Shown here: in pieces, positions 1 to 26,952 of the stretch | How the letters are laid out: the number at the start of each line of letters is the position of its first letter | Position numbering within the stretch: position 1 is the stretch's first letter | From: an uncultured Pseudomonadota bacterium | GTDB taxonomy: Bacteria; Pseudomonadota; Alphaproteobacteria; JACZXZ01 | Reading direction: 5' to 3' | NCBI GenBank assembly: GCA_963749075.1 | Contig: CAVVLJ010000016.1 | Coordinates: forward strand, 1-64,000 | Length of the DNA: 64,000 nucleotides | Made by a program: the position numbers and the translations under genes | The notes under the pieces: generated by a model | Seen by the model: only the letters and a program-made list of their open reading frames with translations | Databases searched by the model: none | Told to the model about the DNA's origin: nothing

Positions 1-15
1 ATCGAGTGGGAGTGA
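1..15 (+). CDS. guaA: 3' end of GMP synthase (…IEWE*), or an att duplicate of it; gene body lies upstream of the window
   Basis: ATC GAG TGG GAG TGA = I-E-W-E-stop, matching the conserved GuaA C-terminus KPP(A/G)TIEWE. The copy at 26672 reads ACG ATC GAG TGG GAG TAG (TIEWE*). Only 15 nt are visible. Confidence 0.65.
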   Translation: MEWE

Positions 16-19
16 GGGG

Positions 20-280
20 TGGCCGCTCACGACAAATTATCTATATTCTTCAATCGGTTACAAAGTTGTGGGGTTGGTCAGGACGTATTGTTAGTCTCGG
101 GGGGCAGACCTCATAACTGATTGAATTACAAGGGGAATAAACAAAGGCGTCGAGCAAGTTTGAGCCGTGGATAGCAGATAAGTTGACGGTGTTTCTGACG
201 GTCTTTTGCGAAATGCACGCCAGCCGAAACTAAAAGACCGTCAGATTGAGCGGATAGCGCTGACGGTCTTTTCCATAAGG
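20..280. other. Left attachment end with IHF-like sites and arm-type motifs
   Basis: TTCAATCGGTTA (49-60) and TAACTGATTGAA (114-125) resemble WATCAANNNNTTR. TGACGGT occurs at 184, 196 and 261, with an inverted copy AAAAGACCGTCAG at 232-244. Confidence 0.6.
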
Positions 281-653
281 CGGCTGGTTCTGAAAAATGC
301 GCTGGGAGGGGTAATTTATAGCCTGTTCGGTACAGTTTTCGCGATAGCCAGCGGAGGTGGCGCATCGTGGTCTTTGAGAAAGTGTGCGTTGTCGTAGCTT
401 GGCTACAATTTGGGCGTCTAATCCAAATTCACCGAGTAGGGGTCTAACGATCTAACGCCGAGGCGAACTGTTGCAGAAGGCGCGAGCCGTCAAAGCCTTG
501 GGTCGGGGCTTACTCTCAAGCGCTAGCCCGGCGAAGCGCATATGAACCGATTACGTGGAAAGCCGCGCGCGAAAGATAGTCTGGTTTCCGGTCTGTCAGA
601 ACAGAAATATGTCTACATTCTTCTGACGGGCGCTGGTCGCCATCTTCAGAATG

Positions 654-1166
654 CTACGAAAACAATTTGGCGACCTCGGCCATTGGGGCGAACAATCTTT
701 GGCCTCCTTCGACGAGATATCTGAAACGGTAGCGCTGATAGAACCGAGCCGCCCTGTCGTCCTTGGCGTCGACGACGAAGGCGTAGGATGCGATCTCGTT
801 CCGCAGCACGCGGCTAAAGGCATCGAGGAGCATGAGCTCGCCGTGTCTTCGCCCCTGGTGGCGGGCATCGATCGCCAGCCGTCCCATCAGCGTCGCCGGT
901 ACGACCGGATAGCGCGGCAGGCGCTTCGCGAGCGCCTCGGGCAATTCGGCAAGCGCGATGCGGGTCGCCGCAAGCGTGTAATAGCCGATCGGAACGCGGT
1001 CGCCGTCGCTGACCAGCACGAAGCACGTGGCGACCCGCCGCCTTGCGTCCTGTCCTGCCTGGTGTCGCAGATACCTGTCCAGCGGCTCAACGCCGCTGGC
1101 GAAACTCTCTCGATCCTGTTGATCCGATAAAGGCTCGATACGCAGTGCGGGCGTAGCGGACGCCAC
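654..1166 (-). CDS. GNAT-family acetyltransferase toxin (TacT/AtaT-like)
   Basis: FASGVEPLDRYL, IGYYTL, PATLMGRLAID..QGRRHG, VVDAKDDRAARFY..Y.F motifs; abuts a DUF1778-like antitoxin. Confidence 0.9.
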   Translation of the reverse strand: MASATPALRIEPLSDQQDRESFASGVEPLDRYLRHQAGQDARRRVATCFVLVSDGDRVPIGYYTLAATRIALAELPEALAKRLPRYPVVPATLMGRLAIDARHQGRRHGELMLLDAFSRVLRNEIASYAFVVDAKDDRAARFYQRYRFRYLVEGGQRLFAPMAEVAKLFS

Positions 1167-1457
1167 TCAAGCACTGATCAGCTTGAGGTATCGTTGCGCG
1201 GCCGCTTTGAGCCGGGCGTTCGGCTCCCGCGGATTGAGGAGCGCCTCCGCGAAGACCCGGCTGTCCGCGGCGCTCAGGCGGATCGTCTGGGTTTCCTCGA
1301 TGACGCGTACGGCCGCGTCATGCACACTGGCGATCACGAAATCCGTCAGCGTGCGCCCCTGCAGCTCGGCAGCGCGTTGGAACAGCGCCTTCTGGTCGCG
1401 GGAGACCCGCGCCTCCAACCGCTCATCTCGCGCTTTGGTTGTGGCTTTTCCTGACAT
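1167..1457 (-). CDS. DUF1778-like ribbon-helix-helix antitoxin
   Basis: ERLEARV..DQKALFQRAAELQGRTLTDFV..IRLS..D...FAEALLNP..PN.RL; ATG at 1457. Confidence 0.9.
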   Translation of the reverse strand: MSGKATTKARDERLEARVSRDQKALFQRAAELQGRTLTDFVIASVHDAAVRVIEETQTIRLSAADSRVFAEALLNPREPNARLKAAAQRYLKLISA

Positions 1458-1493
1458 GTCGCGTATACCTTGAGTTGCATCCGGAACGCGGGT

Positions 1494-1524
1494 ATTATGT
1501 ACGGCCAATAGACGGACGTTTCAA
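1494..1524 (-). promoter_or_regulatory. Putative promoter/operator of the RHH-GNAT TA operon
   Basis: Minus-strand TTGAAA … CATAAT enclosing an imperfect palindrome TGTACGGCCAATAGACGGAC. Confidence 0.4.
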
Positions 1525-1629
1525 GTGGGAGTCTCAGAGGCGCCCGTTCATGACAGGTCTGGGGGAGGGACATGACACCGACTGGAGCATCACGCAAAAC
1601 GTCCAGCGCGATTTAGGCCCGGTGCAACG

Positions 1630-4427
1630 ATGAGCGCCGAAGATGATCAGATCGTAGGGCGACCTGATCTCGCGAAATCTCTTTCCGCGAGAGAGAACGA
1701 TTTCGCGAGCTTCTTCCGATATGCCACGGGATTTCGCCCATACCGATGGCAAATATGCGTTGCTGTCGAAGGACTCCCTGAATTCTTCCTGTTCCAACGG
1801 GATTGGGGAAGACGGAGGGCAGCGTATTGGCGTGGGCGTGGCGACGCTTTGCGCATAAGGCCGATGAACCTCTTCATCTCATTTATTGTCTGCCGATGCG
1901 CAGCCTTGTCCGGCAAACGGCCGAGCGGCTAAGAAACTACTTTGCGAACCTCAAGGAATGGAATGATTTAATCAACATTTCCGTCCACCAACTCATTGGC
2001 GGCGACGCCGATGAGACTTGGACCGCGGCGCCGGATCGCCCCTGGGTGCTCGTCGGGACGCAGGACATGCTTTTGTCTCGGGCGCTGAATCGAGGTTATG
2101 GCATGAGCCGCTTCGATTGGCCCGTGCATTTCGGTCTCCTGAACCAGGACTGCCAATGGGTCGTCGATGAAGTGCAACTCATGGGTCCCGGTCTTTGGAC
2201 AACGGCCCAATTGGATTGGATGAGGCGCAAACGCTTTCCTGGCTTGAAGCCCTGCCGCACCACGTGGATGAGCGCGACCATGGGCGCGCAGTTCCTCCAA
2301 ACGACGGATCGAAAGAGAGACGGATGCAACGCCGTGGAGCCTTTCGATCCAGACCTTGAAAGCGACTCGAACGAAGCTCTCAAACTGCGGCGGACCGCAT
2401 TGCGGCCGACCGAATTCCATCAGCCTGCGACGGGAAAGAAGGCGAAGCCGCTCACCGAGCAGATCGCATCCGAAGCCATCGCCGCTCACCTGCCGGGCTC
2501 GCTGACGCTGATCGTCTGCAACACCGTGAAAACGGCCCGGACTATCTTTCAAGAGCTCGGAGTGGGCGGAGCGCCGAAAATTCTGCTTACGTCGCGCTTT
2601 CGGGCCGGTGATCGCCGCGAGGCGGAAGAGGTTCTTCGAGCCTTCGAATCACGCCGCAGCGCAAGTCCAAACGGGTGCATCGAGGGAGACGATCCAGGGC
2701 TGATCTGCGTCAGCACGCAAGTCGTCGAAGCAGGACTCGACGTTTCGGCTCACCGGCTCTGGACGGAGCACGCGCCCTGGCCTTCGCTGATTCAGCGGCT
2801 GGGCCGCCTCAACCGTGACGGCACGGACAACGAGGCCCGCGCGATTGTCTGGAAGCTCAGGCCGGAAAATAAGCGAAAGTACGAAGGCGAGGACTGGATC
2901 GGTCCTTACCGGAAGGCTGGGCTGGACCAGGCGTCATCGCTGCTCAAAGCGCTTACACCGCTCTCCCAACAGAAGACGGCTGTAGAGGCGCTCTCAGGGC
3001 TTCAGGCACAGAAGCCCGAGGAATATGCCAAGGCGCTCGCGATCCCGCCGGAGCCATGCCCACGCGCGCTCGATGTCCATAGCCTGTTCTCGACGGAGCC
3101 GGACCTGCACGGCGGCTTTACGGATGTGAGCCGGTTCGTGCGAAATGCCGATCCTGACGCCGACCTGATCGTGTTCTGGCGCGACTGGCGGGGCGGAGCG
3201 CCGCCCATTGGCGACGCCCTCGACGGCCCGCCGCTCGACCTGAATGCCGAAGCTTGCCCAGTGGCGTTGTGGCGGTTTCAGGAATTCCTCAAGACCGCCC
3301 ACGCCCACGCCTGGCTCTGGAATGACCGTGCAGAGCACTGGGAGCCGGTATCATTCCAGAACCTGAAGCCTGGCATGACGGTCATGCTGCGCGGCGATGT
3401 CGGCGGCTACAGCAAAGCCCTCGGCTGGACCGGCGCCACGAGGGATCGCCTGAACGACCTGCCATCAGCAGGAAGGGGACGCGCCTTACGTGACGATTGG
3501 CGTGCCGAAGCTGGCTATTGGTCGAGCTTGGCGTCGCACCTCGCAGACGCGCGCGGCGAAGCAGAACGCCTCTGTGATGCGCTGGCTCTTCAAGCGCCGA
3601 TCCGAACAGCCGTCGTCGAAGCCGCCGGCCTCCACGACCTTGGCAAGGCGCATCCGGATTGGCGGGGCGCGATACCCGAGAGTGGCCCCCTCGATTGCGA
3701 GGCTCTGGCGAAGTTCCCGAAAGTGCTTCGTATCGAGGTGTTGAGCCAAGATGCCGAAGGAGTGCGAACGGCGGTCAGACCAAAGCTTGCGACCGCAAGC
3801 GCCCTGTCTGATGAAGAGGTGAACGAGGGCAAGATAGTCCGTCTTCGCTGGGCTCTCGAACGCTCACTCGACCAGATCACGCTCAAAGAGATTCGAGCGC
3901 TCTCAGGCGTCAGATGGGCAGCGTACAAGACGTTCCGTCCTGGCATGCGGCACGAGGCGGCGTCCGCTCTCGCCATGTGGCGGCAATATACGGTTGCGAA
4001 TGAATCGCCATACCCGGCCCTCGCCGTGTATCTCGCCGCCGCTCATCACGGGAAGGTGCGGACGGTGCTGAAGGCGATCTCGCGGGAAGGAGGGGACGTG
4101 TTCGGCGTCGGCCGAACGCCCGAGACGCTACGGTTCGATGACCGAGACTGGCCGATGGAATTCTCGGTGGCTCTCGACGGCTCCGATGGCGAGTGGATCG
4201 AGGACGGCTTTGCGGTCGCTGGGCCCGGCTGGACCGGCATCGTAGCCGACCTGCTCGGGCCGTGGCGCGGTGGGTTCGACGCTGCGTGGACGGGCGCCGT
4301 GCCCTGGGACGAGCCGCGTGCGCTCGGCCCGTTCGCGCTCGCCTGGCTCGAGTCGCTCGTCCGTGTTGCTGACTGGCGCGCGAGCGACCACCCCTCCCAG
4401 GTCGTCCGAGTCGGAGGTGACGGATGA
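1630..4427 (+). CDS. cas3: Type I-G (I-U) Cas3 helicase with C-terminal HD nuclease; 1-bp frameshift at ~1783
   Basis: ORF from 1630 gives F..ATGFRPYRWQ..EGLPE; the next frame continues LPVPTGLGKT (Walker A), DEVQ, MSAT, STQVVEAGLD, QRLGRLNR, then HL…HDLGK…HE…HHG…ADWRAS. Confidence 0.93.
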
Positions 4428-6553
4428 GGACGAACCAACAGGTCTTACCCGTCATTTCAGTTCCGGGGCTGCGGCCTACCAGCCTCGGTGCCTATCTCGC
4501 CGCGCTCGGTCTGCTGAAAGTCCTTTCGCACCGCTGGCCTGATGTACGCGCGGCCTGGCGCGATGGTGTGTTCCATCTGGTCGGCGGTCCGGCGGACCGC
4601 GATGCGCTGGCGGACGCTCTCATAACCGTCGCAGATCAGGCGTCATGGACGCCCTATGATCGGGGCTGGGCCGACGCTCAGAAAGCCAGCACGAAAGCGA
4701 AATCAGGCGCGAAACTGGCGTTATGGCAAGCGGAAGCTGATGAAGCCGATCTGGAATTGTTCGCCGCTCACGCCGCTCCTGCATCGCGGGTGTTCTTCAA
4801 TCCATTGCTGGGTAGCGGCGGCAATGCGGGCAAGCGGGCGTTCGCCGATGGTTGGAAGAAGGCGACGGAGGCGCTCCAACCTCCCAAAGCGTCCAAGAAG
4901 AAGGCAGCAAACACCGATGATCGGCGTGAGGCGCTGAACACGTTTCTCGACGGTGAGGCGTCAGTATGGCAGACGGAGAAGCTCAATGCCGCCTCCTGGT
5001 TCAGTGACGCCAATAAGCTCTACAACAGCGGCCAGAACTCTTTTAGTGAAGGTGCGATCTCGCCTTGGGCCATGGCGCTCGCTTGCGAGGGGCTCGTCTT
5101 CTTCGCCGGGAGTGCATCGCGGCGGCTCGGTGCGCGGACCCGACCCGTCGGTGCCTTCCCCTTCGTGGTTGAGGCCGCATCGCCCGAAACATCGGGCGAG
5201 GCCGGACGTGATCGGGGCGAGGTCTGGGCTCCGCTGTGGTCCCGTCCCATGACCGTGCCCGAAGTTGCTGCCCTGTTTACGCGGGGACGGGCTGAAATCG
5301 GCGGTCACGGGGCGGTAACGCCTGCCGCCTTCGCTGTCGCCATAACGCGGCGCGGCGTCGATGCCGGTATTGAAGAATTCCGCCGCTTCGCACTGGGCAA
5401 GACCACCAGCGCCAACACCTTCGAGCCGCGCTATCTCGGTGCCGCGCCGGTTCCGGCTGGCTCTCCCGATGCTCAATCCGACACCTTCGAGCGGATATGT
5501 GGCCTGATCGAGAGCCTGCCTCGCGACCGGAAAGAAGGACAGCGCTGGCGCTTTGTCGGGCTGCGCGGTCCCGTGGAAATCGCGCTCGTAAGCGCCGCCG
5601 GCAGACCACACAATGCTGAAGCAATGACGGCTTTGCTCGATGCCGCCGTCCAGGCGCTGGACCGTGTGGATGTCAACCGATCCTTCTGCGAAAAGGGCGT
5701 CTCGTGGCAGCCGCTGCCGCTCGATTGGCTGTCGGATTTGTTCAGCGGCGACGCACCCGATATCGAGGCGTGCCTTGCTTTGTCGCTGATTTCAGCCTTT
5801 CCGGTTGAATATCCGTTCGCGCTCTATCGGTTCGGTATCGAGTGGCGGAACCAGAGTGGAGACGGGCGGCCAAGAAAGAGCTCTCCGTACATCCATCCCA
5901 AGACGCCGCCTCCACGTTGGGTTTGGCGCGCTGGTCCGCTGGCGCGAAACCTCAGCACAGTTATTCAGCGCCGGTTGCTTGACTGGGAAGACCACGAAAA
6001 GCTTGGCACACCGCCTCTGCGCAGTCCAATTGCGGCCCGCATGTCCGATGTCGGGGCGTGGCTCGACGGCCATGTGGACGAGGCGCTTCTCGCCCGCTGG
6101 CTCTCCCGGATGGCGTTATTCGACTGGTTCTTCATACCTCCAAGCGTTCGCGCGCTCTCGCCCTTCGAGCGGGGGGACATCGGGGTGGGATCGGCACTCG
6201 CCCTCTACGGCCTCCTTCACCCGCTGTTCGATCTGAGGCCCGTGTCGGACAATGGCCGAAAAGAGGGACGCGATCTTCTGCCTCCCGACACCGGCGCACG
6301 CACATCGGCGGCAGCGCGCAGGATGGCGGCACTCGTTCGCGGCGGGGATATCGACCGCGCCGTCGAGGTCGCCTGTTCGCGCTTCGCCATGGCGCAGGCC
6401 CCGCTCATGCGAATGAATACGCCGTGGGCGATCACCGACCCGGAGCGCCTGCTTGCCGCCCTCCTGTTTCCCGTTTCCAACCGTGACCGAAGCGCGCTGG
6501 TCCGGCGCTGGCTGCGCCCGCAACGCCAAGCAACTGAGGTGATCCATGCCTGA
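4424..6553 (+). CDS. csx17: Type I-G large subunit Csx17/Cas8g (Cas8u2)
   Basis: GL.P..L..YL.ALG, FNPLLGSGGNAG, PW...LA.EG, RGEVWAPLW.RP and GID.F.R motifs; position between cas3 and cas7. Confidence 0.85.
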   Translation: MRTNQQVLPVISVPGLRPTSLGAYLAALGLLKVLSHRWPDVRAAWRDGVFHLVGGPADRDALADALITVADQASWTPYDRGWADAQKASTKAKSGAKLALWQAEADEADLELFAAHAAPASRVFFNPLLGSGGNAGKRAFADGWKKATEALQPPKASKKKAANTDDRREALNTFLDGEASVWQTEKLNAASWFSDANKLYNSGQNSFSEGAISPWAMALACEGLVFFAGSASRRLGARTRPVGAFPFVVEAASPETSGEAGRDRGEVWAPLWSRPMTVPEVAALFTRGRAEIGGHGAVTPAAFAVAITRRGVDAGIEEFRRFALGKTTSANTFEPRYLGAAPVPAGSPDAQSDTFERICGLIESLPRDRKEGQRWRFVGLRGPVEIALVSAAGRPHNAEAMTALLDAAVQALDRVDVNRSFCEKGVSWQPLPLDWLSDLFSGDAPDIEACLALSLISAFPVEYPFALYRFGIEWRNQSGDGRPRKSSPYIHPKTPPPRWVWRAGPLARNLSTVIQRRLLDWEDHEKLGTPPLRSPIAARMSDVGAWLDGHVDEALLARWLSRMALFDWFFIPPSVRALSPFERGDIGVGSALALYGLLHPLFDLRPVSDNGRKEGRDLLPPDTGARTSAAARRMAALVRGGDIDRAVEVACSRFAMAQAPLMRMNTPWAITDPERLLAALLFPVSNRDRSALVRRWLRPQRQATEVIHA

Positions 6554-7709
6554 AGACCAGATTTCGCCGATCATACTGGCGCCTCAGAGCGTCCTGCACG
6601 GCGCATCGCCTCTGGTGCTGACCGCAACGCTCAGGCCCGTCGCGGGCCTGGACCGCTTCCAGCCGGCCGGCTTTCCGGAGATCGGTCACGTCATCTACAA
6701 GGCGCCACGGAAGGATGGTCGTGTCGAGAATGTCTGCATCGTCGACAGCCCGGCCAGCATGGCGAACCATCTCGAATCTGTGTGCCTGCGCGGCCCACAC
6801 GACCTCGAACTCGACGACGACCTCGCAGGCATGCCCTACCTGCGCTGCGTCACCGGCGATTTAGCGGACAAGAAACTTCCGTCGGAGAAGCGCGAACTCG
6901 TTGTTACAAGCCTTACGGAAGGGCATCGAATCGCGTCAGACTATTTTCTGGAGGGACAGGAGCTTAAGTCAGATGATGAGCTTGGCGCAAAATTCAGCGC
7001 AAGGCTCATGGAAGAATTCGAGGCCCGACCTCTCAAAGGGGGGAATGCCTACCTTCCTCCAGCAGGTTGGTGGAATGTCTTTCACCACATCTATCGGTAT
7101 GATCCAAATGCCCTGGTTCACGGTGTTCTCTTTCCTAAATGGCAGATCAAGATTGCGCGATTTTTGACTGCACATTTGGAGGCTTTCGGTGCCGCGCGCG
7201 TCGATCGCTCGGGCGTCAAGTTCGATCGTCTGGGCAAGACAACGTCCGGTCAGCCCATCTTTGCCGTCGATGACGCCACCGCCGGCGAGGTCCGCGCTAC
7301 CTTCATTCTCGATGTCGCGCTCCTTCGCTCCTTCGGTCGCACCGAGAAGAAGGATGGTTCGGACGGCGAGAAGGTGCGCGGACTATCGGAAAAGCAAAAG
7401 GAGTTCGTTGTCGCACTTGTCCTCTGGAAGGTCGACCGGCTACTGAAAACCCCATTCCGCTATCGCTCCGGCTGTCACCTCGAACTCGTCAGTCTCAAGC
7501 ATAGCGAGCAAGATGTTAGGCTAGACGTGAACATGAAGGATGCGATCAAGAGCGCCGCGTTCAGAGCCGAAGACGATCAGACGCCAATCGTCACAGACAT
7601 CTATTGGCCGCATAACGAACTTTATCGTGAAGGCAAAGACGATAATAAGTCGGTTTCCGTAGACGGCAACGACAATGGGGCCGAGGATGGTGACAGCGAG
7701 GACACGTGA
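6546..7709 (+). CDS. csb1: Type I-G Cas7 backbone (Csb1)
   Basis: RFQPAGFP.IG, IVDS.ASMANHLE, HRIAS, YDPNALVHGV, RYRSGC.L motifs. Confidence 0.9.
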   Translation: MPEDQISPIILAPQSVLHGASPLVLTATLRPVAGLDRFQPAGFPEIGHVIYKAPRKDGRVENVCIVDSPASMANHLESVCLRGPHDLELDDDLAGMPYLRCVTGDLADKKLPSEKRELVVTSLTEGHRIASDYFLEGQELKSDDELGAKFSARLMEEFEARPLKGGNAYLPPAGWWNVFHHIYRYDPNALVHGVLFPKWQIKIARFLTAHLEAFGAARVDRSGVKFDRLGKTTSGQPIFAVDDATAGEVRATFILDVALLRSFGRTEKKDGSDGEKVRGLSEKQKEFVVALVLWKVDRLLKTPFRYRSGCHLELVSLKHSEQDVRLDVNMKDAIKSAAFRAEDDQTPIVTDIYWPHNELYREGKDDNKSVSVDGNDNGAEDGDSEDT

Positions 7710-7712
7710 GCC

Positions 7713-9413
7713 ATGCGGCTGGTTCTGCGACAGTCATTTCCCCTCGGGCGTTTTCATGCGACACAGTGGCGGGCCAGTCCCTTTGACGAGGAACTCGCTG
7801 GCGAATGGCCGCCGAGTCCTTGGCGCCTGACACGCGCCGTTGTCGCCCGCTGGTATCAATGGCGTCGTGAGACGGTTGGGACTTGGCCCGAGGACGAGCT
7901 TGAAAAGCTCATTCGAGCGTTGTGCACAAGTGACTACCACTTCCATTTGCCGGAGCAAGCACGTCAGTCCGTCATTCTCCGCCAATACCAGCCCGCCGAA
8001 TTCCGGATGGACCCACCTAATTACAAATCATTTGAGGCCGAATTCACTGCAACTGATAGTGCGGAGCAGAAACTTAAAGGTATCGCACAGAGTGTGAAGC
8101 GTCACGAATCGCGCCTATTGGTTCGAGTGAAAAAGAAACGTGCTCAGAAAAAGGTTGAAGGAACAATCGGAGCGCCACTCGGCAATTGGCGGGGACTCGA
8201 TCCTGATCCCGGCACCCGTGGTTACGGGACCAATCTCACCGAGGACAACGCTTGGTGCATTCCACCGGACGAAAGCCTGTTCTGGTTCGTTGAGGGTGAC
8301 AGTTGGACGCCGGAACTTGCGGAGGTCCTCGACCGATGCCTCGAACGGATTGTCTATTTTGGGCGCGCTGAAACGTTGACGCATATATGCCGCACCGATG
8401 AGGCGCCGATATCGGAGAACGTGAGGCTCTCCGAAAACAGGACCTCCGGCCGCCTAGTCCCGGTGCTGGTTCCGTGCCTCGATGCGACTCAGACCGATGT
8501 CGAGCGTGTGACGCAAGACCCGCTGGCCGCGCGCAATATCCCGCAAGGTGCCCGCCTGCTCTACGCCCAAAGGCCGCCACGCCCACCCGTCCGAGAGGCG
8601 CCCCGCCGTATGCCCGTGCGGCCAGACACACATCTGGTTCAATTTGCCCTTGGTTGGGCAGTAGCGCCGGAACAACGCGCTACAGTGCGCCTGACCACTC
8701 GCTTTCGTGCTGCGGTGCTCCGCAATCTCATCCGCATAAAGACAAAAGGTACCACAGCTAGGTGGAGCGAAGCGCCTGCCGACATTCGCGATGAAATCTC
8801 GGGAATGACCGGCAAGGACCCACAGGGAGAGCCGCTGCGAGGCCCAAGAGCGCATGCCGAGTTCCTGCTTTGGTGGGATAGCGGTGTTCCAACACGCCTT
8901 CTCGTCTGGCGAGGCGCTCGCCCGTTCGACGGGGATGAACTGGAAGCCATACTGCGTGCCGCTGCGCAGGAGTTGTCGTGGGCGGCGGCTGGGCCTGACG
9001 CCGAAGCGTGGAAGATCAAGCTCGTCCCTCTGGACGCCGTAATTCCACCCCCGCCGGGGTTCGACGGAGCATCGGCGACGGCTTGGCGAACACTCACGCC
9101 CTATGTTCCGCCTCGCCACCATTTGCGCGGCGGAAAGGTCCGAGAGTCCGAGACGATCAATAATCAGATCCGCCGTGAGCTTGCCGCGCGCGGTTATGCG
9201 TCGGGCGCCGAACTTCTATCTGTGAAAGAAATCGCTCCTCCGACATGGGTAGCTGTACATGTGCCACGACGCCAAGCTGACCAGCGGCCATTTATTGGCG
9301 AGCGCCTTAGCTACCGACTTCAGCTTGTGTTTACCCGGCCAATCGTCGGGCCAGTTCGGCTAGGACACTCAAGCAGCTTTGGTCTTGGATTGTTTTCGCC
9401 GGTTGCGTCATGA
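7713..9413 (+). CDS. csb2: Csb2 (Cas5-Cas6 fusion)
   Basis: FPLGRFHAT.W, EWPPSPWRL.RA, YFGRAE, W.T.TPY.PPRH and the C-terminal G-rich loop GP..LGHSSSFGLGLF. Confidence 0.9.
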   Translation: MRLVLRQSFPLGRFHATQWRASPFDEELAGEWPPSPWRLTRAVVARWYQWRRETVGTWPEDELEKLIRALCTSDYHFHLPEQARQSVILRQYQPAEFRMDPPNYKSFEAEFTATDSAEQKLKGIAQSVKRHESRLLVRVKKKRAQKKVEGTIGAPLGNWRGLDPDPGTRGYGTNLTEDNAWCIPPDESLFWFVEGDSWTPELAEVLDRCLERIVYFGRAETLTHICRTDEAPISENVRLSENRTSGRLVPVLVPCLDATQTDVERVTQDPLAARNIPQGARLLYAQRPPRPPVREAPRRMPVRPDTHLVQFALGWAVAPEQRATVRLTTRFRAAVLRNLIRIKTKGTTARWSEAPADIRDEISGMTGKDPQGEPLRGPRAHAEFLLWWDSGVPTRLLVWRGARPFDGDELEAILRAAAQELSWAAAGPDAEAWKIKLVPLDAVIPPPPGFDGASATAWRTLTPYVPPRHHLRGGKVRESETINNQIRRELAARGYASGAELLSVKEIAPPTWVAVHVPRRQADQRPFIGERLSYRLQLVFTRPIVGPVRLGHSSSFGLGLFSPVAS

Positions 9414-11153: not shown

Positions 11154-11164
11154 GCACCCGCCCC

Positions 11165-11458
11165 ATGGCCGACGAACGCCTCTTCATCGTGACTTACGAC
11201 ATCTCCGACCAAAAGCGCTGGCGGCGCGTGTTCAAAGCCATGCATGGGTATGGCGAATGGATACAGCTTTCCGTTTTCCAGTGTCGTCTCTCGCAGCGGC
11301 GCCGCGCCGAGCTCGAGACGCAATTGCGTGAACTGGTGAAGAATGGCGAGGACCACGTCCTTCTGATTGATGTCGGACCGGCAGACAAAATCGAGCTGGC
11401 CATGGAGAGCATCGGCAAAACGTTCTCGAAAATGGAACGCCGAGCTACTGTCATATAG
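11165..11458 (+). CDS. cas2: Cas2
   Basis: IVTYDISD.KRWRRVFK.M.GYGEW.QLSVFQC; alternative GTG start at 11150. Confidence 0.95.
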   Translation: MADERLFIVTYDISDQKRWRRVFKAMHGYGEWIQLSVFQCRLSQRRRAELETQLRELVKNGEDHVLLIDVGPADKIELAMESIGKTFSKMERRATVI

Positions 11459-17700: not shown

Positions 17701-20700
17701 CGAGCTCGGCGCCGCCGGCGCCGGCGAGAAGCATCCGAGGCGCGCGCGCCTCGGCCTCATTGAAGCGCGTTCATGATGTTGGCCGCATCGTCCAAGATGG
17801 TGCATCCGAGGCGCGCGCGCCTCGGCCTCATTGAAGCCTCGGAGGGCGCGGCGCTCGATCACCCCACCTCCCTGACGCATCCGAGGCGCGCGCGCCTCGG
17901 CCTCATTGAAGCTGTGACCCAGATGCCGTCCTCGGCGCCTACTGGGAGCTAGGCATCCGAGGCGCGCGCGCCTCGGCCTCATTGAAGCGCGCAGTGCGGG
18001 CACGGGTGGGTCTTCACGTCCTCCGGGGCATCCGAGGCGCGCGCGCCTCGGCCTCATTGAAGCGGTCGCGGGCTCCGCGTGGGCTGCCATCGGCGTTACG
18101 GCATCCGAGGCGCGCGCGCCTCGGCCTCATTGAAGCTCGGAGGACTTGTGATGCCCCAGCCCACGGCGCTCAGGCATCCGAGGCGCGCGCGCCTCGGCCT
18201 CATTGAAGCTCGCCCAAGCCACAGAACCAGCCAGTATTGCCATCGACGCATCCGAGGCGCGCGCGCCTCGGCCTCATTGAAGCGCCGGCGAGGAAGCCAA
18301 GGCCATCCATCCCGAGCATCCGCATCCGAGGCGCGCGCGCCTCGGCCTCATTGAAGCAACGCGATATCCGCCTTGAACGTGTCGGGACTGTAAAAAGCAT
18401 CCGAGGCGCGCGCGCCTCGGCCTCATTGAAGCTACGGCTAGGGGCCTGCCCGTCCCAGCTCCATGAGTTGCATCCGAGGCGCGCGCGCCTCGGCCTCATT
18501 GAAGCTAGCCAACCGCCATCTGTGCCAATTGCGGCTTCACGTGCATCCGAGGCGCGCGCGCCTCGGCCTCATTGAAGCCACGCCAGGCTCGGCTCTCACC
18601 GCTCTGCCCGGAGCGCATCCGAGGCGCGCGCGCCTCGGCCTCATTGAAGCGTGCCGCCCGGCGTCGTCTCGACAAGAGGCATCGGTGCATCCGAGGCGCG
18701 CGCGCCTCGGCCTCATTGAAGCGAGTGCGCCGCAGCAACTGCAGGTGCCGATCTTCTGAGCATCCGAGGCGCGCGCGCCTCGGCCTCATTGAAGCGGGGG
18801 GTACCCCCCCCCGGGGGGGGCGTCGGCGGCGCGGCATCCGAGGCGCGCGCGCCTCGGCCTCATTGAAGCAACGAGAACAAGGGAGTTGCGGCATGAGCTG
18901 CTCGCGCATCCGAGGCGCGCGCGCCTCGGCCTCATTGAAGCGGCGGCAGCTCGGCGAAGCTCGTGATACCGACGAGGACGCATCCGAGGCGCGCGCGCCT
19001 CGGCCTCATTGAAGCGCCTTGAAGGTCTGGTTCGCCACCATGCTCGCCACCGCGCATCCGAGGCGCGCGCGCCTCGGCCTCATTGAAGCTCCTCAGCCTG
19101 TGCTTTCGCGCGGTTCTGACGCTTTGCATCCGAGGCGCGCGCGCCTCGGCCTCATTGAAGCTTGCAATCTGCCGTTGAGTTGCTGTCTCCTGGATCGCAT
19201 CCGAGGCGCGCGCGCCTCGGCCTCATTGAAGCTATATAGAGCGAGACGGCGGCGACCTTCTGCTGGCTCGGCATCCGAGGCGCGCGCGCCTCGGCCTCAT
19301 TGAAGCTGGCTGTAGACGCGCTGCCGGATGATCCCGACGTTTGGGCATCCGAGGCGCGCGCGCCTCGGCCTCATTGAAGCTGATTGGGAGACGCCATGCA
19401 TCGCGTGATGGTCTACGCATCCGAGGCGCGCGCGCCTCGGCCTCATTGAAGCGATGTCGTTTCGCCACCAGGCGCGGAAGGCCATGAGCGCATCCGAGGC
19501 GCGCGCGCCTCGGCCTCATTGAAGCGGAGCGGTCCAGCAATTCCTCGGGCGGCGCCGGCAGCATCCGAGGCGCGCGCGCCTCGGCCTCATTGAAGCCCCA
19601 ACCACGGGCTCCTCGCCATCGTCGAGCAGGCCGGCATCCGAGGCGCGCGCGCCTCGGCCTCATTGAAGCACGCCCAGGGCGACGATGCCAGCGCTGATGG
19701 TGGCGGCATCCGAGGCGCGCGCGCCTCGGCCTCATTGAAGCTAGATCCCGAGCTTGTCGTGGCGCCCGGCCGCCCCACGCATCCGAGGCGCGCGCGCCTC
19801 GGCCTCATTGAAGCGCGGGAGGCTGAGCCGTGGTCGACGTCTACCACTATGCATCCGAGGCGCGCGCGCCTCGGCCTCATTGAAGCACGGATTGGTGGGC
19901 GCTTCTGAATGCCGAGCTTGTTGCATCCGAGGCGCGCGCGCCTCGGCCTCATTGAAGCGAGCGCCTTCGCGACCGACCAAGCGAAGTCGCCGCCCGGCAT
20001 CCGAGGCGCGCGCGCCTCGGCCTCATTGAAGCACCTGCTCATCGAGCGTCGTCTTGGCGCCGGCGTGGGCATCCGAGGCGCGCGCGCCTCGGCCTCATTG
20101 AAGCTTCGACTCATTCGTGACCCACGTCGATGTCGAGAAGGCATCCGAGGCGCGCGCGCCTCGGCCTCATTGAAGCGACAGCGCGGGCGCCGCCGGTGTC
20201 ACGACGCAGGCCCGCATCCGAGGCGCGCGCGCCTCGGCCTCATTGAAGCGCCGGTCGAGACGGTGACGACGGTCGCGGCGGGAGCGGGCATCCGAGGCGC
20301 GCGCGCCTCGGCCTCATTGAAGCGGATCATCCGCGGCTGGCTCAAGGCCGAGAAGAGGGGGCATCCGAGGCGCGCGCGCCTCGGCCTCATTGAAGCCGAT
20401 CGGGCCACGCCTTGTTGCCATCCTGCGGCGTTGGAGCATCCGAGGCGCGCGCGCCTCGGCCTCATTGAAGCGCCGTGATCGTGACGCTGCCGTGGACCGC
20501 CGTCAGGCTGCATCCGAGGCGCGCGCGCCTCGGCCTCATTGAAGCGCCGCGGCTTCCTCATGTCGATCAACGGGAAGACCTCGGGCGCATCCGAGGCGCG
20601 CGCGCCTCGGCCTCATTGAAGCACGGGTATGAGGATACTGCATAATATGTGCCCAGCAAGGCATCCGAGGCGCGCGCGCCTCGGCCTCATTGAAGCCTCC

Positions 20701-23700
20701 TGGCGTTGAGAGGGACGAGGAAGAAATCTTCGGGCATCCGAGGCGCGCGCGCCTCGGCCTCATTGAAGCCCCGTGACCACGCCCGCGGTCTCGCCCCAGC
20801 GCCGCGCATCCGAGGCGCGCGCGCCTCGGCCTCATTGAAGCAGCGTCTCGATCTTGTCCTCGTGACCGACCGAGATGGCATCCGAGGCGCGCGCGCCTCG
20901 GCCTCATTGAAGCGCGCACTTTCCTGACGAGCAAAGAGATGGACACGCTCGGCATCCGAGGCGCGCGCGCCTCGGCCTCATTGAAGCGAGGGCCAGAAAT
21001 TCGCCTTCAGCGCGCGCGCGCCGTTGCATCCGAGGCGCGCGCGCCTCGGCCTCATTGAAGCCATCTCGACCAGGCGCATGATCAGGCACGGCACGCCGGG
21101 CATCCGAGGCGCGCGCGCCTCGGCCTCATTGAAGCGCCGCGAGGTCCGCCCGGCGCTGAGCGTCGCGGCGGCGCATCCGAGGCGCGCGCGCCTCGGCCTC
21201 ATTGAAGCAGGTTGATCACCGGCGCCGTGATGTTCGCGACCGTGGCCGGCATCCGAGGCGCGCGCGCCTCGGCCTCATTGAAGCCTCGGCGTTGTCGATG
21301 ACGAGCCGTATCTCGACGGGGCATCCGAGGCGCGCGCGCCTCGGCCTCATTGAAGCACGTTGTGGCCGGGCATCGCACTCGATGGGCTCGCCAGCATCCG
21401 AGGCGCGCGCGCCTCGGCCTCATTGAAGCCGCGCGTGGGTCAAGCGCGCTGAGGAGGAGGCCGCGGCATGGCATCCGAGGCGCGCGCGCCTCGGCCTCAT
21501 TGAAGCCAGGACTTCGGCGACTTCGAGGAGCTCGGCGCCAACCGCATCCGAGGCGCGCGCGCCTCGGCCTCATTGAAGCCCGTTCTCGCCGCCGGCGAGC
21601 GCTGGTGCGAGATCCCGCATCCGAGGCGCGCGCGCCTCGGCCTCATTGAAGCCTCTCAGGGGAGGCCCTCGGGAAGGAAGGCCGCGAGCGGCATCCGAGG
21701 CGCGCGCGCCTCGGCCTCATTGAAGCATGGACCAGCCGGTCGAGTGGCACCCCGCGCGCGCCGGGCATCCGAGGCGCGCGCGCCTCGGCCTCATTGAAGC
21801 ATTCCTGGTCGTGGGCGCATCGAATGCATAGTACTCAGCATCCGAGGCGCGCGCGCCTCGGCCTCATTGAAGCTTTTTCGGTGCAGATCGTATGGAAAAA
21901 ATTGTCCGGCGGCATCCGAGGCGCGCGCGCCTCGGCCTCATTGAAGCTCGATCCTCCTAAAGTACCGTCCACTCCGAGCCGCCAGCATCCGAGGCGCGCG
22001 CGCCTCGGCCTCATTGAAGCCGCATTTGGCTTGGTGACGACGACATAACATCTTGGCGCATCCGAGGCGCGCGCGCCTCGGCCTCATTGAAGCCCGGGGA
22101 ATAGCCCCGGCACGGCGTCGAGTGGCGGCCAGCATCCGAGGCGCGCGCGCCTCGGCCTCATTGAAGCGTGAGGACCCAGCCGACGCAGGTGCGGCTCGGG
22201 TCGCATCCGAGGCGCGCGCGCCTCGGCCTCATTGAAGCCGTGTCGGGCCGCGGCGCGTAGATGCGCGCCCAATGCGCATCCGAGGCGCGCGCGCCTCGGC
22301 CTCATTGAAGCACAGCCGAGGATTTGCCGATCATCCTGGAAGCGCAGGGCGGGCATCCGAGGCGCGCGCGCCTCGGCCTCATTGAAGCCTCTCCGGCGCC
22401 GCCGCCTTTTCTGGCGGCGCGCGCCTGGCATCCGAGGCGCGCGCGCCTCGGCCTCATTGAAGCCTCACCTTCCTCGACAAGTTCGGCTCGCCCACGGCCG
22501 GCATCCGAGGCGCGCGCGCCTCGGCCTCATTGAAGCGATGCCGTAGCCGAGCACATTGAATGCAGCCTCGAGCGCGCATCCGAGGCGCGCGCGCCTCGGC
22601 CTCATTGAAGCCTCGCATTCGCGCGAGCTGTAGGTCACCAGCCGGGCATCCGAGGCGCGCGCGCCTCGGCCTCATTGAAGCACGCGTGTTCCAGACACAA
22701 CGCCTTTGTTGGCACCACGGCATCCGAGGCGCGCGCGCCTCGGCCTCATTGAAGCGATCAGCTTGGGAACAGTGAAGCCCGAAGCCGCCGAGGCATCCGA
22801 GGCGCGCGCGCCTCGGCCTCATTGAAGCGAGGCGCTGGTGCGCGGCTGGGGCATCAAGCGCGAGAGCTGCATCCGAGGCGCGCGCGCCTCGGCCTCATTG
22901 AAGCGCCGAAACCATCGGCGTCTCGGCGGGCACCCTCAGCCGCATCCGAGGCGCGCGCGCCTCGGCCTCATTGAAGCGCGCTGGTAGGGGGCATGGAGAC
23001 ACCTGCTGAAATGGCATCCGAGGCGCGCGCGCCTCGGCCTCATTGAAGCGTCTGGATCGTCACCGCGCCGCCGGTCACCATCTTCGCATCCGAGGCGCGC
23101 GCGCCTCGGCCTCATTGAAGCGGGCAAGCCGCTGACGGCGCTGGCGAAACGGGCCGGCATCCGAGGCGCGCGCGCCTCGGCCTCATTGAAGCCACGCGCT
23201 GGCGCGCACGCTCGTCGAGTACGACCGCCTGGCATCCGAGGCGCGCGCGCCTCGGCCTCATTGAAGCACGTTGTGGCCGGGCATCGCACTCGACGAGCTC
23301 GCCATGCATCCGAGGCGCGCGCGCCTCGGCCTCATTGAAGCGAATTGCGGCGATCCGACATGCTTGCCTCCCTCTCGAGCATCCGAGGCGCGCGCGCCTC
23401 GGCCTCATTGAAGCTCGGCGCGAGAGGTCGGCGCTGCTCACCTCCGCCGCCGCATCCGAGGCGCGCGCGCCTCGGCCTCATTGAAGCTGGACCGCCGGTT
23501 CCAGGCGTTAAGTGGCGAGACGCTGCATCCGAGGCGCGCGCGCCTCGGCCTCATTGAAGCTTGTAAAGATCGACCGCGGCATTGAGGCCCTCGCCGAGCA
23601 TCCGAGGCGCGCGCGCCTCGGCCTCATTGAAGCGAGGAAGCGCGAAAAAGCCCTTTGTCGATGGCCCAGTCGCATCCGAGGCGCGCGCGCCTCGGCCTCA

Positions 23701-24764
23701 TTGAAGCCCCAACTGGATGGGTGTCGGCACCGTGGGCGTGACCTGCATCCGAGGCGCGCGCGCCTCGGCCTCATTGAAGCGGCCATCTCTCGCTCCTGCC
23801 CCCGATAGGCCCCGAGGCGCATCCGAGGCGCGCGCGCCTCGGCCTCATTGAAGCGGCGAGGCGCGCGCGCCTCGGCCTCATTGAAGCCGGCGGTTACGCT
23901 TACGCGGCTTCCCGCCGATATAGGCTGCATCCGAGGCGCGCGCGCCTCGGCCTCATTGAAGCAGCTGTGCGGCCACGCTCGGCGGCGTCGGCCCGTCGAA
24001 GCATCCGAGGCGCGCGCGCCTCGGCCTCATTGAAGCGCCACCACCTCCCGCCTTCGACGCAACTGCCTGCGCGCATCCGAGGCGCGCGCGCCTCGGCCTC
24101 ATTGAAGCGACGCAGCGCGTCCTCAAGCAGCGTCGGCTCCCAGGCATCCGAGGCGCGCGCCTCGGCCTCATTGAAGCGAGGAGCTCGGCGCCAACCTCCG
24201 CGTCCACCGCGTGCGCATCCGAGGCGCGCGCGCCTCGGCCTCATTGAAGCGTTTATATGTGATTGGCCCACGAGTCCCAGCTGACGCATCCGAGGCGCGC
24301 GCGCCTCGGCCTCATTGAAGCGGTACCTTGGAGGTTTTCGCGGCCTGCACCACAGCTTCGCATCCGAGGCGCGCGCGCCTCGGCCTCATTGAAGCCCGAT
24401 ATTACAGAATGTTGCGACCGGTGACGTTTAGCATCCGAGGCGCGCGCGCCTCGGCCTCATTGAAGCTCGTCACATCCCAGCGGGGAACGATATGAGGCTG
24501 ATCGCATCCGAGGCGCGCGCGCCTCGGCCTCATTGAAGGACCGTCAATTCCTCGAAGACTATATCGCGCGCCATTGCCAGGCATCCGAGGCGCGCGCGCC
24601 TCGGCCTCATTGAAGGAGCCTCCGGACGGCGTGATATCATTATTCTCGTTACCGAGCATCCGAGGCGCGCGCGCCTCGGCCTCATTGAAGCAATTCAGAG
24701 GGGGTCATGGCCGTTTCCAGTCTCCATCGCATCCGAGGCGCGCGCGCCTCGGCCTCATTGAAGA
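11715..24764 (+). CRISPR. CRISPR array, ~179 copies of the 36-bp repeat GCATCCGAGGCGCGCGCGCCTCGGCCTCATTGAAGC with 34-41-nt spacers
   Basis: Repeats counted by hand (±2). The ATTGAAGC 3' handle, the leader beside cas2 and variant repeats at the distal end (…GAAGG twice, final …GAAGA) give + orientation. Confidence 0.98.
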
Positions 24765-24999
24765 CAAGCAATGCTGCGGGCCGGACTCGAAACCGGCTAG
24801 TGGATGGGCTTAGTGCACCGAGCCATTACGCCGCTGCCTTCTCGTCACCATCTCGAACCTTTGCTGGCCGTGTGTCCTTCCACACCGCCGCAGCCAAATA
24901 TCTCTATTGGATCAGTCGCCTTCCATCAACCTCAATGGGCTGGGATCGTGTGTGATCAGCAGAGCACAAACATGGCCAGCGCGAACGCCCTGTGCTATA

Positions 25000-25246
25000 A
25001 GCGCTGACGGTCTTTTTCCATGCTGGCGCAGAATACGCTCCGCGACCGACGACGCAAAAAATTGACCGATCGTTGTCGATAGTTCTCGAAACCGCGCAAA
25101 ATTCGAATCGCGCAAATTTTCCTTTGAAATCATAAGCGAAAAAATTTGACGGATTGGCAGTCGGATTTCGACCGTCAGAAGAAATATTTTGCGCTTATAA
25201 ATCAGCGCGTTACGATGCGTTGAGAGGATCGAGTGGGAGTGAGGGG
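25000..25246. other. Right attachment end of element A
   Basis: AGCGCTGACGGTCTTTTTCCAT (25000) nearly duplicates 256-276; IHF-like AAATCAGCGCGTTA; guaA-end core at 25228. Confidence 0.7.
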
Positions 25247-25359
25247 GCAATCGGCTACAACAGCGTAGTTTTGACTGCGAATTTTTTGGCCTGTTGCGCC
25301 TCTGTCTTGGCGACGCGGTGGACCCTTTCGCGCCGTATTTGGTGTGCTCCGGCGGCCTC

Positions 25360-25959
25360 TTATTCCCTGAGCGATCTTGGGCCGCTGACGAACGGACTGC
25401 CCGGAAGATAGAATCGCAGGAGGCGGTTCGCATCCCGCGATATGCCGATCCTAATGCTCTGCCCGATTTCGCCGGGTTCGTGGTCATCGCGTCCGAGCCA
25501 TAGAGGACCTTCTCGGCAAAGATCGAGCCCATCGAGCCGACGATCGATCCGCAACGCGGCGGCGAGCCTTCCCGGCCCTCGCGCCAAGTCGCGCAAGCGC
25601 TCGACGCCGCGATATAGCCGCATGATCGGGACGCCTTCGAGCGGCTCGAGCGCCCTGATCAGGACGCCGGCCCCGATCCCGGGTATCTCGCTTGAGACAT
25701 TCAGCATGTACGAGCTGCCGTACGCGACATAAATATAAGCGTGCCCGCGCTCGAGAAACAGCGAGCGATTACGCCGAGTCATCCCCCGGTAGGCGTGGCC
25801 GGCGGCGTCGCCGACGACATACGCCTCGGTCTCAACGATACGACCGCTGACGACGCCTTCAGGCAGTTCCCGCACCAATACCTTGCCAATGAGATAGCGG
25901 GCGAGAGACACCGTATCGATCGGCAGCTCCAAGCGAGCGAGCGGGCGGCAGATGGCCAT
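25360..25959 (-). CDS. mpg: DNA-3-methyladenine glycosylase (AAG/Mpg family)
   Basis: GRIVETEAY, GHAYIY..YG, GAGVLIRALEP, GPGRL, RIGI motifs. Confidence 0.92.
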   Translation of the reverse strand: MAICRPLARLELPIDTVSLARYLIGKVLVRELPEGVVSGRIVETEAYVVGDAAGHAYRGMTRRNRSLFLERGHAYIYVAYGSSYMLNVSSEIPGIGAGVLIRALEPLEGVPIMRLYRGVERLRDLARGPGRLAAALRIDRRLDGLDLCREGPLWLGRDDHEPGEIGQSIRIGISRDANRLLRFYLPGSPFVSGPRSLRE

Positions 25960-25977
25960 CCTTACGGCGGCCGGGTT

Positions 25978-26358
25978 TCAGGGCATCCGCTCGACCCATT
26001 CAGCGCGCGACGGCCCCGGCTCGAAGGGATCGCCGAAATACTGGGTCTCGCGGGCCACCTTCCCATCGAGGAACTCCATGATGCTCACCGTGTAAGACGG
26101 CCGCCCGTCATAGGTTAGGACATATTCGGTGACCCAGAGGCCGCCCGCGCCGATTACCCGCCGCACTGTGAAGCGTTTCCGGTTCGGCTGTGCTGCGCGA
26201 GACGACTGAATCTTCCGCCGCCCGCGCATGCGCTCGCCCGATTGAGGATATTCGAGCACCGCGTCCTCTCGGTAAATCTGGTGCTCCCCCTCGAAGTCGT
26301 TCGCATCGGAGGCGGCCCAGTGGCGATCGAGAGCCGCTCGAATCTCCCGGTCTTCCAT
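25978..26358 (-). CDS. SnoaL-like / NTF2-family protein
   Basis: HWAASDA.DF..EH.IY..DAVLEYPQSGER..G…VSIMEF.DGKV.RETQYF; ATG at 26358 after AGGAG. Confidence 0.85.
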   Translation of the reverse strand: MEDREIRAALDRHWAASDANDFEGEHQIYREDAVLEYPQSGERMRGRRKIQSSRAAQPNRKRFTVRRVIGAGGLWVTEYVLTYDGRPSYTVSIMEFLDGKVARETQYFGDPFEPGPSRAEWVERMP

Positions 26359-26884
26359 ATCAAATCTCCTTGACCATCGCCGTCGACGTTGAGCAGTCGT
26401 ACCATGCGCTTGCCTGCAACAGGTTTCCCCGATGAAAATACGAGCGATCCTGACGGTAGCTTTTCGACCCAATCGCTGAGGCGTATTCCGGAGGTGGATT
26501 CAAGAAATCCCCCGATCGATGCCGATAGTCCCTGAAAGCGAGGAATTTCCCGAGTGGCAAAATTCCTCTTTAAAATCAAAAGCTGTGTGCATCTGACGGT
26601 TCGCCTGGCGGAAGTTTTCAGGGCGAAGAAAAGCTTTGCCCAGAAAAATCAACTCGGTAGATTCGATGAGAACGATCGAGTGGGAGTAGGAGGAATATCG
26701 CGGCAGGTGTCCTGGGCGTTTGAGGACGGCGTGGCCGGGTGGTGTCATCACGATCTCGGCTCACGCCGCGACTTGGCCAAGCGAAGGTGCCCTCGGTGGC
26801 TCGGCCGCTGAGCCGGAGGTTTCGCGGCGGATTTGACGTCGCCGCGATGTCGAGACCCTTCCAAATATGGCGGCATATTGCCAC

Positions 26885-26946: not shown

Positions 26947-26952
26947 GGGTTT

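Follow-up and report, generated by a model that had tools for sequence, protein, structure and literature searches.

The integrase of GIsul2 excises and integrates CR2-sul2, a unit that has no integrase of its own, at cores holding GAGTGGGA, and tandem CR2-sul2 units have been reported in Aeromonas (cited section of PMC9376610). The cis-mobilizable elements (CIMEs) of ICESt1/ICESt3 in Streptococcus thermophilus possess attL and attR, lack integration and transfer genes, and lie in tandem at the 3' end of a gene; the cited part of PMC5704250 proposes as their origin that an element integrates and decays and that a newcomer then accretes at the att site, with mobilization in cis. PIMEs are integrative mobilizable elements at guaA in Pseudomonadota that carry their own core components and excise with a helper plasmid (cited excerpt of bioRxiv 10.64898/2026.01.12.698999). 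Finally, ICEMspSymAA22 carries CRISPR-Cas of type I-C, and a guaA-specific IntG occurs in the tripartite integrative and conjugative elements (ICEs) of Mesorhizobium (passages cited from PMC8627217). Here we describe two adjacent units, A and B, at the 3' end of guaA in a 64,000-nt stretch of DNA from an uncultured alphaproteobacterium (contig CAVVLJ010000016.1, positions 1 to 64,000; hereafter the window). Unit A holds an entire type I-G CRISPR-Cas locus. We consider it probable that A and B, as att-flanked elements without an integrase, belong to an integration system specific for guaA, whose integrase, IntG, is itself encoded on rarer islands of relatives.

The 13-nt guaA end ATCGAGTGGGAGT occurs on the plus strand of the window at 1-13, 25228-25240 and 26675-26687, against a chance expectation of 0.06 copies; none of 100 shuffles contained three or more. 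Copies 1 and 2 are identical across 19 nt (1-19 = 25228-25246), and copy 3 has the common 13 nt only, with a TAG stop instead of the TGA of copies 1 and 2. Measured from core to core, unit A spans 25,227 nt (a TacAT pair, type I-G cas genes and a 177-repeat array) and unit B 1,447 nt (mpg and a SnoaL-like gene). The cores and the sequences beside them are as follows.

1-19, plus strand: core copy 1, attL core of unit A; final guaA codons (IEWE), TGA stop and 4 nt
20-430, plus strand: left (P') arm of A; TGACGGT cluster and a conserved block at about 371-429
24772-24896, minus strand: block of about 125 nt between array and arm; 93.5-97.6% identical in 11 other copies
24981-25227, plus strand: right (P) arm of A; CTGACGGT at 25004-25011, TGACGGA at 25147-25153, inverted site at 25171-25178
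25228-25246, plus strand: core copy 2, which is the attR core of A and bounds B on the left; 19-nt identity to copy 1
26427-26674, plus strand: right (P) arm of B; CTGACGGT at 26450-26457 and 26593-26600
26675-26687, plus strand: core copy 3 with TAG stop; 13-nt match

The 64 kb of the window open contig C16 (1.38 Mb) of a metagenome-assembled genome, G000 (23 contigs, 96% complete, 5% contamination). The single GMP_synt_C match in this genome lies at the extreme end of contig C15, which, in the guaA direction, ends ...GTIEW and lacks only the final guaA codons. The end of C15 and the start of C16 overlap by 10 nt (ATCGAGTGGG), and no further contig end of G000 carries the core; core copy 1 is therefore most likely the real, working guaA stop, joined to the rest of the gene across the contig break. 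Copy 3 is probably the original guaA end, displaced. The two contigs ending at one guaA core suggest a branch in the assembly graph, that is, alternative neighbours in the sampled population. An initial annotation of the window, made from its letters, had placed the core at 1, 25228 and 26675, with 19 identical bp in the first two copies, and had asked whether guaA lies upstream of position 1; the search and the shuffles confirm the former, and C15 supplies guaA across the break.

Arm homology extends over 190-270 nt before cores 2 and 3. The right arms of A and B are homologous, with 68% identity over 189 nt (E 8e-6 in a search against the whole genome). The motif CTGACGGT occurs eight times in the window, against 1.42 expected, and seven of the eight occurrences fall within the arms. 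In the left arm of A, TGACGGT sites stand in direct orientation at 184-190 and 196-202, inverted at 237-244, and direct again at 261-267 (TGACGGTCTTTT). This arm is 78-85% identical to sequences on the metagenome contigs L054, L058 and L074, and positions 371-429 match unit 1 of the genome G078 (83% over 59 nt). Because A has a P' arm with four TGACGGT sites as well as a P arm, its attL (core and P' arm) and attR (P arm and core) both look complete. A is flanked by the attL and attR of an integrase-bearing family, as CIMEs are, and B shares this feature for the right arm only; neither unit has integration or transfer genes of its own.

No recombinase gene was found in the window. PF00589 has nine matches in G000, all outside the window (nearest, C16:459719), and the two PF00239 matches also lie outside it. 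Pfam searches of the 34 open reading frames (ORFs) of the window detected no tyrosine or serine recombinase, and tblastn of IntG against the 64 kb gave a best E of 2.6. The absence of a recombinase ORF between the cores, noted in the initial annotation, was confirmed by all of these searches.

The integrase is found in relatives. In G007, a member of the same family, the gene for a 427-aa IntG with Arm-DNA-bind_3, Phage_int_M and Phage_integrase domains begins 306 nt after guaA, and its 43-kb island ends in an arm of the same family as those of A; the right arm of this island is 80% identical to that of A, with the last 45 nt identical. G162 and G083 encode 85-86% identical IntG proteins beside guaA, with an arm 31 kb and 25 kb away, respectively. 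In all three genomes, a TGACGGT cluster lies between core and int, the position that it occupies in A (184-267), and its layout in the islands is two direct sites, one inverted site, and one direct site followed by a T run. Along 93% of its length, IntG shares 58% identity with the integrase of a GIsul2 copy that lies on a plasmid and has the layout int-alpA-repAC-trbJKL-ars-resG-ISVsa3-sul2. Integrases of the lambda and P4 types bind arm-type sites with their N-terminal domain and cut at the core with their C-terminal domain. IntG itself is classed as a P4-like tyrosine recombinase of the GIsul2 integrase family, its N-domain being of the arm-binding type. Among further genomes with arm matches, G068 has an IntG fragment at a contig end and G078 has none.

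The IntG islands have cargo of their own. In the island of G162 (C2:381301-408499; L114, L115), a Dpd-like DNA modification set of DndB-like, TGT-like, QueC and radical-SAM genes stands alongside SIR2, SNF2/DEAD helicases and a PLD nuclease. The island of G083 also carries HamA.

A sequence-only model of arm plus core was run on 11 genomes of the order and on 150 other sampled genomes of the class. It matched in 4 of the 11 and in 8 of the 150, five of these eight in further families. None of the claims made here relies on the unpublished genome G050. An arm of the same family stands before guaA-core copies in G005, G006, G007 (twice) and G035, and tandem copies are present in G000, G007, G035, G078 and G083. 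Integrase-less units with these ends number 10-11 cases in eight genomes, the eleventh being a remnant in G083. Besides A and B, they include the following.

G005, 2.0 kb: PIN pair
G006, 1.5 kb: SDR
G007, 8.6 kb: type III-B Cmr unit with Cmr1, Cas10/Cmr2, Cmr3 and three more RAMP proteins
G035, 16.1 kb: HipA-like, DUF4365-TPR and an insertion sequence
G035, 4.2 kb: DUF4336 protein
G078, 3.1 and 5.4 kb: LysR, NmrA, SDR and others
G119, 1.75 kb: no family match
G083, 0.8 kb: remnant, an arm lacking the core

In metagenomes, a search for exact matches to the end of the A-type arm plus core returned 59 contigs, every one of which carries the arm. These contigs contain 17 core-to-core intervals of 1.2-9.4 kb; both boundaries (guaA end, or arm and core) were verified in 15 of them, the exceptions being the left boundary in L065 and the right boundary in L087. 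Their 61 ORFs of at least 75 aa include no recombinase family. Among the cargo are LysR genes with SDR pairs, hydrolases, MFS transporters, genes for nickel and RND transport, modules of the PIN, AbiE and Fic kinds, and a TOTE-type primase-helicase. In the integrase-less units of both genomes and metagenome contigs, tblastn detected no remnant of IntG; the initial annotation had named integrase remnants of ordinary decayed islands as evidence against its reading. The sampled integrase-less units (10-11 in genomes and 17 on metagenome contigs) outnumber the IntG islands (4-5).

Several loci suggest that the units are separable from their neighbours. The metagenome contig L083 holds a 1.9-kb unit with an AbiE pair, adjoining guaA, whose left arm is 80% identical to that of A over 351 nt and whose right arm is 83% identical. 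L083 and A are one two-arm chassis with different cargo. L054 and L058 start with six and two copies, respectively, of the CRISPR repeat of unit A, followed by the 125-nt block, the arm and the core, and units other than B lie behind that core. In L068, an arm 98.8% identical to 25005-25248 is followed by divergence directly after GAGTGAGGGGGC. Sequencing runs were compared as assembled contigs, and run X3 has a contig that agrees with 24826-25247 in all but 4 of 422 nt, its remaining 245 letters being unmatched to the window. L068 and this contig both part from the window directly behind core 2. A flank common to G003 and G005 (GAGTGAGCTGGCCGCG) directly follows guaA in G003 and stands behind the 2-kb unit in G005. 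Empty sites and other cargo between homologous ends, which the initial annotation had suggested seeking in relatives, are therefore both found: G003 is empty and G005 filled, and other cargo occurs in genomes and on metagenome contigs.

The closest described counterpart is CR2-sul2. Like A and B, it is an integrase-less unit between two guaA-end cores with GAGTGGGA, which the cores of the window also contain (cited section of PMC9376610). CR2-sul2 sits behind an island whose integrase gene adjoins guaA, and is moved by that integrase (PMC9376610, same section); here, an integrase of the GIsul2 family (58% identical) is found beside guaA in relatives and not in G000. The arms differ, since homology does not reach beyond the core (in the GIsul2 copy, nhmmer matches are confined to model positions 239-270). 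The arm sites of our units are of the TGACGGT type; ISCR2/rcr2 is absent, and neither A nor B contains an IS91-type gene. Instead of sul2, the units carry a CRISPR-Cas locus or metabolic genes, and the hosts are soil bacteria of another class. Unit A retains a full P' arm, whereas the attLR described in the cited section of PMC9376610 is given without one. CIMEs resemble A and B in being att-flanked, devoid of integration and transfer genes, and arranged in tandem with related elements at the 3' end of a gene, but those of ICESt1/ICESt3 belong to another integrase family, target gene and phylum; moreover, the units described here share a conserved chassis, were encountered far more often than their parent islands, and show no remnants of integrase genes (compared with the cited part of PMC5704250). 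PIMEs use the same attB beside guaA and likewise depend on a helper for transfer, whereas units A and B carry no recombination gene (compared with the excerpt of bioRxiv 10.64898/2026.01.12.698999).

Two other classes were considered and rejected. The locus is not an integron, as the window has no integrase and the unit ends are 250-nt arms with a guaA core, not attC. Integrons share with the proposed system the promoter-independent stacking of many small integrase-less units at one site, through a tyrosine recombinase whose gene lies elsewhere in the platform. Unlike integrons, the locus has no IntI, attI or attC hairpins, and its arms of 250-480 nt bear arm-type sites; the units often carry their own regulators (LysR) and reach 25 kb, and the integrase gene resides on an island of its own instead of heading the array. 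Nor is the locus a region of a tripartite ICE, as A and B are each bounded by two directly oriented copies of one guaA core. ICEMspSymAA22 and the tripartite ICEs are similar in having CRISPR-Cas as mobile-element cargo and guaA as an att site in Alphaproteobacteria, but they are large ICEs with integrases of their own and regions between unlike att halves, as presented in the passages cited from PMC8627217. Full-text literature searches, limited to main texts, found no description of integrase-less CRISPR-Cas units or of such guaA arrays in Alphaproteobacteria. What is new here is a distinct TGACGGT arm family in soil bacteria, a shared chassis, and complete CRISPR-Cas systems as cargo.

How A and B would move can be outlined from these comparisons. 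IntG may bind the TGACGGT sites, as judged by their position only, and would exchange strands inside ATCGAGTGGGAGT. An incoming IntG island would supply IntG in trans, so that A could be excised as a 25.2-kb circle and re-inserted at guaA; alternatively, the island and the units behind it might leave together as one circle, the units being carried in cis. Successive insertions at the guaA end would build the stack. With no IntG in the assembly, the units of G000 would be stranded at present. Unit B, which has a P arm only, may be a trimmed unit, or a product of recombination at an internal core like that of CR2-sul2.

A wider reading, which we offer tentatively, is that the guaA end of soil Alphaproteobacteria may be an integron-like capture platform, at which an integrase of the GIsul2 family, encoded only on rarer islands, would insert, stack and reshuffle integrase-less units on a standard two-arm chassis. 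The chassis would pair a P' arm that bears TGACGGT sites with a P arm 250-480 nt long, and in one lineage it would also include a near-invariant, tRNA-like RNA of 125 nt. Complete CRISPR-Cas systems of two types (I-G here, III-B in G007) would circulate on it together with toxin-antitoxin (TA), defence and metabolic modules.

Several observations weigh against the assignment of A and B to an IntG-dependent system. G000 has no IntG homologue, the best match in this 96% complete assembly being 27% identical, and mobility is inferred for this reason. Among the ten other genomes of the order, IntG occurs only in G007; G005 and G006 are without it. Among the assembled contigs of the source run, no excision product was seen. 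The IntG gene beside guaA in G066 is truncated to residues 8-187, and plain decay therefore does occur. The IntG islands examined are not full conjugative elements, with TrbI and ArdC in G007 and a TrbI fragment in G083. On L080, a distant tyrosine recombinase 25% identical to IntG, the sole tblastn hit among the metagenome loci, is encoded about 4 kb past the core. For B, the 113-nt left side contains no TGACGGT site, mpg-SnoaL occurs with 91% identity and without an arm in G009, and SnoaL is inverted and on the far side of the core in G006. B is the weaker case, because of its lack of left-arm sites and the armless pair in G009. For A, the interference genes (about 1732-9395) are 70-87% identical in six contigs of metagenome-assembled genomes (L043-L048; labelled Xanthobacteraceae, Terriglobales, Gemmataceae and Alphaproteobacteria) that carry neither the arms nor the guaA end. 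The cas operon, 78-87% identical to these contigs at the nucleotide level, is thus found without these ends, and the CRISPR locus is therefore cargo that spreads by other routes too.

The initial annotation had read A and B as non-autonomous modules that an integrase could move in trans. The shared att arms, the lack of an integrase and the IntG islands of relatives support this reading, with movement in trans remaining an interpretation and B the less secure of the two. Its proposed search for an integrase with TGACGGT arms drew a blank in G000 and succeeded in G007, G162 and G083, where a P4-like integrase follows guaA. It had also named, as evidence against itself, the presence of the same genes in relatives without these ends; for B, the armless pair of G009 is such a case.

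Of the alternatives, the one that survives best, although we consider it unlikely, is that the units are inert scars: integrase islands would have accreted at guaA, each losing its integrase and most of its genes, and the conserved ends would be slowly decaying leftovers. The truncated IntG of G066, the 0.8-kb piece in G083 whose arm has no core, the lack of left-arm sites in B, the absence of IntG from G000, G005 and G006, and the armless mpg-SnoaL of G009 are all compatible with decay, and a three-step route of decay and accretion is described for CIMEs in the cited part of PMC5704250. However, the integrase-less units contain no IntG fragments, unrelated cargo is enclosed by both arms, with site clusters, that remain 78-85% identical, near-identical arms (98.8%) adjoin different neighbours, and integrase-less units are commoner than IntG islands in the sample. 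We favor integrase-less elements of the IntG system over scars.

Ordinary homologous recombination between arms of 250-480 nt, shuffling the stack with the arms as portable homology only, appears improbable. In its favor, arm identity between units reaches 80-99% over 250-520 nt, sufficient for RecA, and L062 has an inverted arm pair. In contrast, identity between the A and B arms is only 54-68%, arms of this family go together with the guaA core and with IntG islands, the geometry of the arm sites is conserved on both sides of the core, and the filled site of G005 and the empty site of G003 differ exactly at the core. An artefact of assembly or binning, to which the 23 contigs and 5% contamination of G000, the contig break exactly at core 1 and variant contigs in the source run might point, is hardly credible, as both units, with cores 2 and 3, are contained in a single contig of 1.38 Mb, source-run contigs cover 24857-25849 and 26027-28202 without differences, and the closed genomes G083 and G035 have the same architecture.

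If A and B are elements of the IntG system, they bear on how immune systems spread. The distribution of CRISPR-Cas loci is patchy, and the means by which entire loci move are often unclear. In the present case, a 25-kb locus comprising cas genes, a 177-repeat array and a TA pair bears the full attachment-arm set of an integrase encoded elsewhere, and the type III-B module of G007 has the same layout. This provides a testable route by which entire immune systems could travel, as passive cassettes, where an essential gene ends. The CR2-sul2/CIME principle would thereby be extended from resistance genes of clinical Gammaproteobacteria to soil bacteria, with a broad cassette pool of diverse cargo. 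The analysis also delimits an attP, about 500 nt long, that contains candidate arm sites.

The cargo of unit A was assigned with Pfam, NCBIfam and a repeat search, and its genes are listed below.

654-1166, minus strand: GNAT acetyltransferase, toxin of the TA pair; GNAT matches weak, under the Pfam cut-offs
1167-1508, minus strand: TacA-type antitoxin; TacA1 at 94 bits
1803-11458, plus strand: type I-G cas operon
1803-4427, plus strand: cas3g; NCBIfam Cas3g 575 bits (cut-off 400)
4424-6553, plus strand: cas8g1/csx17; NCBIfam Csx17 421 bits (cut-off 150)
6546-7709, plus strand: csb1/cas7g; NCBIfam Csb1 37.8 bits (cut-off 38), Pfam GSU0053 90 bits
7713-9413, plus strand: csb2; NCBIfam Csb2 88 bits (cut-off 45)
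9410-11153, plus strand: cas4g/cas1g; two frames, frameshift near 10200-10234
11150-11458, plus strand: cas2
11715-24764, plus strand: CRISPR array; 177 copies of a 36-nt repeat by regular expression

With Cas3g, Cas8g1/Csx17, Csb1/Cas7g, Csb2, Cas4g/Cas1g, Cas2 and an adjacent array, this is a type I-G locus. The cargo reported in the initial annotation (TA, cas and array in A; mpg and SnoaL in B) was borne out. The fusion of Cas4g and Cas1g typical of type I-G is represented here by two overlapping ORFs (9410-10234 and 10092-11153), and the N-terminal strand of Cas1 starts in the frame of the former; the split is either a real frameshift or an assembly error. In the six contigs that carry the interference genes without arms, and whose labels span three phyla, the adaptation genes are only about 64-68% identical where present (L046, L047, L048), against 70-87% for the interference genes. 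This contrast suggests module exchange within I-G loci, or binning errors.

In the array, 174 of the 177 repeats are perfect, and the 176 spacers, of 34-41 nt, are all unique. The gaps at 23855-23926 and 24109-24214 are longer than usual and probably hold degenerate repeats. The array gave no match in a phage collection, and against plasmids it matched only 180 nt, at 76%, in two Cereibacter plasmids, with no annotated feature beneath. In G000 and the other loci compared, spacer matches were partial (17-30 nt), and none was full-length. The spacer at 19453 matches 27 of 30 nt at C16:473961-473990 of G000, 14 kb from the tyrosine recombinase gene at C16:459719, and may be a degraded self-target in a prophage-like region. 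The G+C content is 55-65% up to about 30 kb, apart from the array (68-75% at 12-24 kb), compared with about 70% beyond.

The 125-nt block between the array and the right arm is far better conserved than the adjacent arms. Its copies include C42:52574-52698 and C42:38681-38806 in G007 and those on the metagenome contigs L054, L058, L079, L087, L092, L093, L094 and L096. The predicted fold of the minus strand has a closing stem of 7 bp and a T-arm-like hairpin (GCCGG-UUUCGAGU-CCGGC) beside its 3' strand, and changes in the stems mostly preserve G-U pairs. ARAGORN detected no tRNA or tmRNA in the block, and no Rfam family matched at E up to 1. Covariation was no better than in shuffles (254/500), and the RNA structure of the block is therefore not established.

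Two further observations concern the ends of the metagenome units. At least 15 junctions right after the core have another type of left end (GGGGAGTAC..GGAGTAG..GGATAG..GCGTAC) without TGACGG sites; it was seen in L060, L063, L065, L066, L071, L082, L089, L090, L091, L095, L103, L104, L105 and others, and is possibly a second set of protein-binding repeats. On L062, the arms stand in inverted orientation at 1572-1774 (plus) and 3539-3353 (minus).

Unit B contains the following.

25247-26426, minus strand: cargo of B; 113-nt left spacer, mpg and SnoaL-like gene
25360-25959, minus strand: mpg (3-methyladenine DNA glycosylase)
25978-26472, minus strand: SnoaL-like gene; longest ORF, start probably near 26349

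B is 91.2% identical over 1086 nt to the corresponding sequence of G009, which belongs to a different genus; the guaA 3' end of the two genomes is 85.2% identical and the backbone genes 73-82%. B is better conserved than guaA, another sign that the units are separable. Many peat and soil contigs of runs X2, X3 and X7 cover the mpg-SnoaL pair (25372-26541) at 90-95% likeness, with a summed depth of at most 762, and leave the adjoining arms uncovered; a lack of cover in these runs carries no weight. In an X7 contig, at 90% likeness, 17 other letters connect 26690 with 25361, and such joints often come from other organisms. As a lead only, this joint might mark B as a circle or in tandem, or it might belong to a different unit whose arm is of the B type.

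Behind core 3 lies a variable flank, with these features.

26688-31900: variable TA-rich flank without arms, followed by conserved backbone from about 31970
26833-27940: putative antitoxin and Fic/Doc
28083-28889: HTH_37 gene
29034-29695: Phd/PIN
29733-30335: HTH-cupin
31081-31344: VapB

Parts of this flank (HTH_37 and the PIN pair) are common to G003 and G005, where they occur in other combinations.

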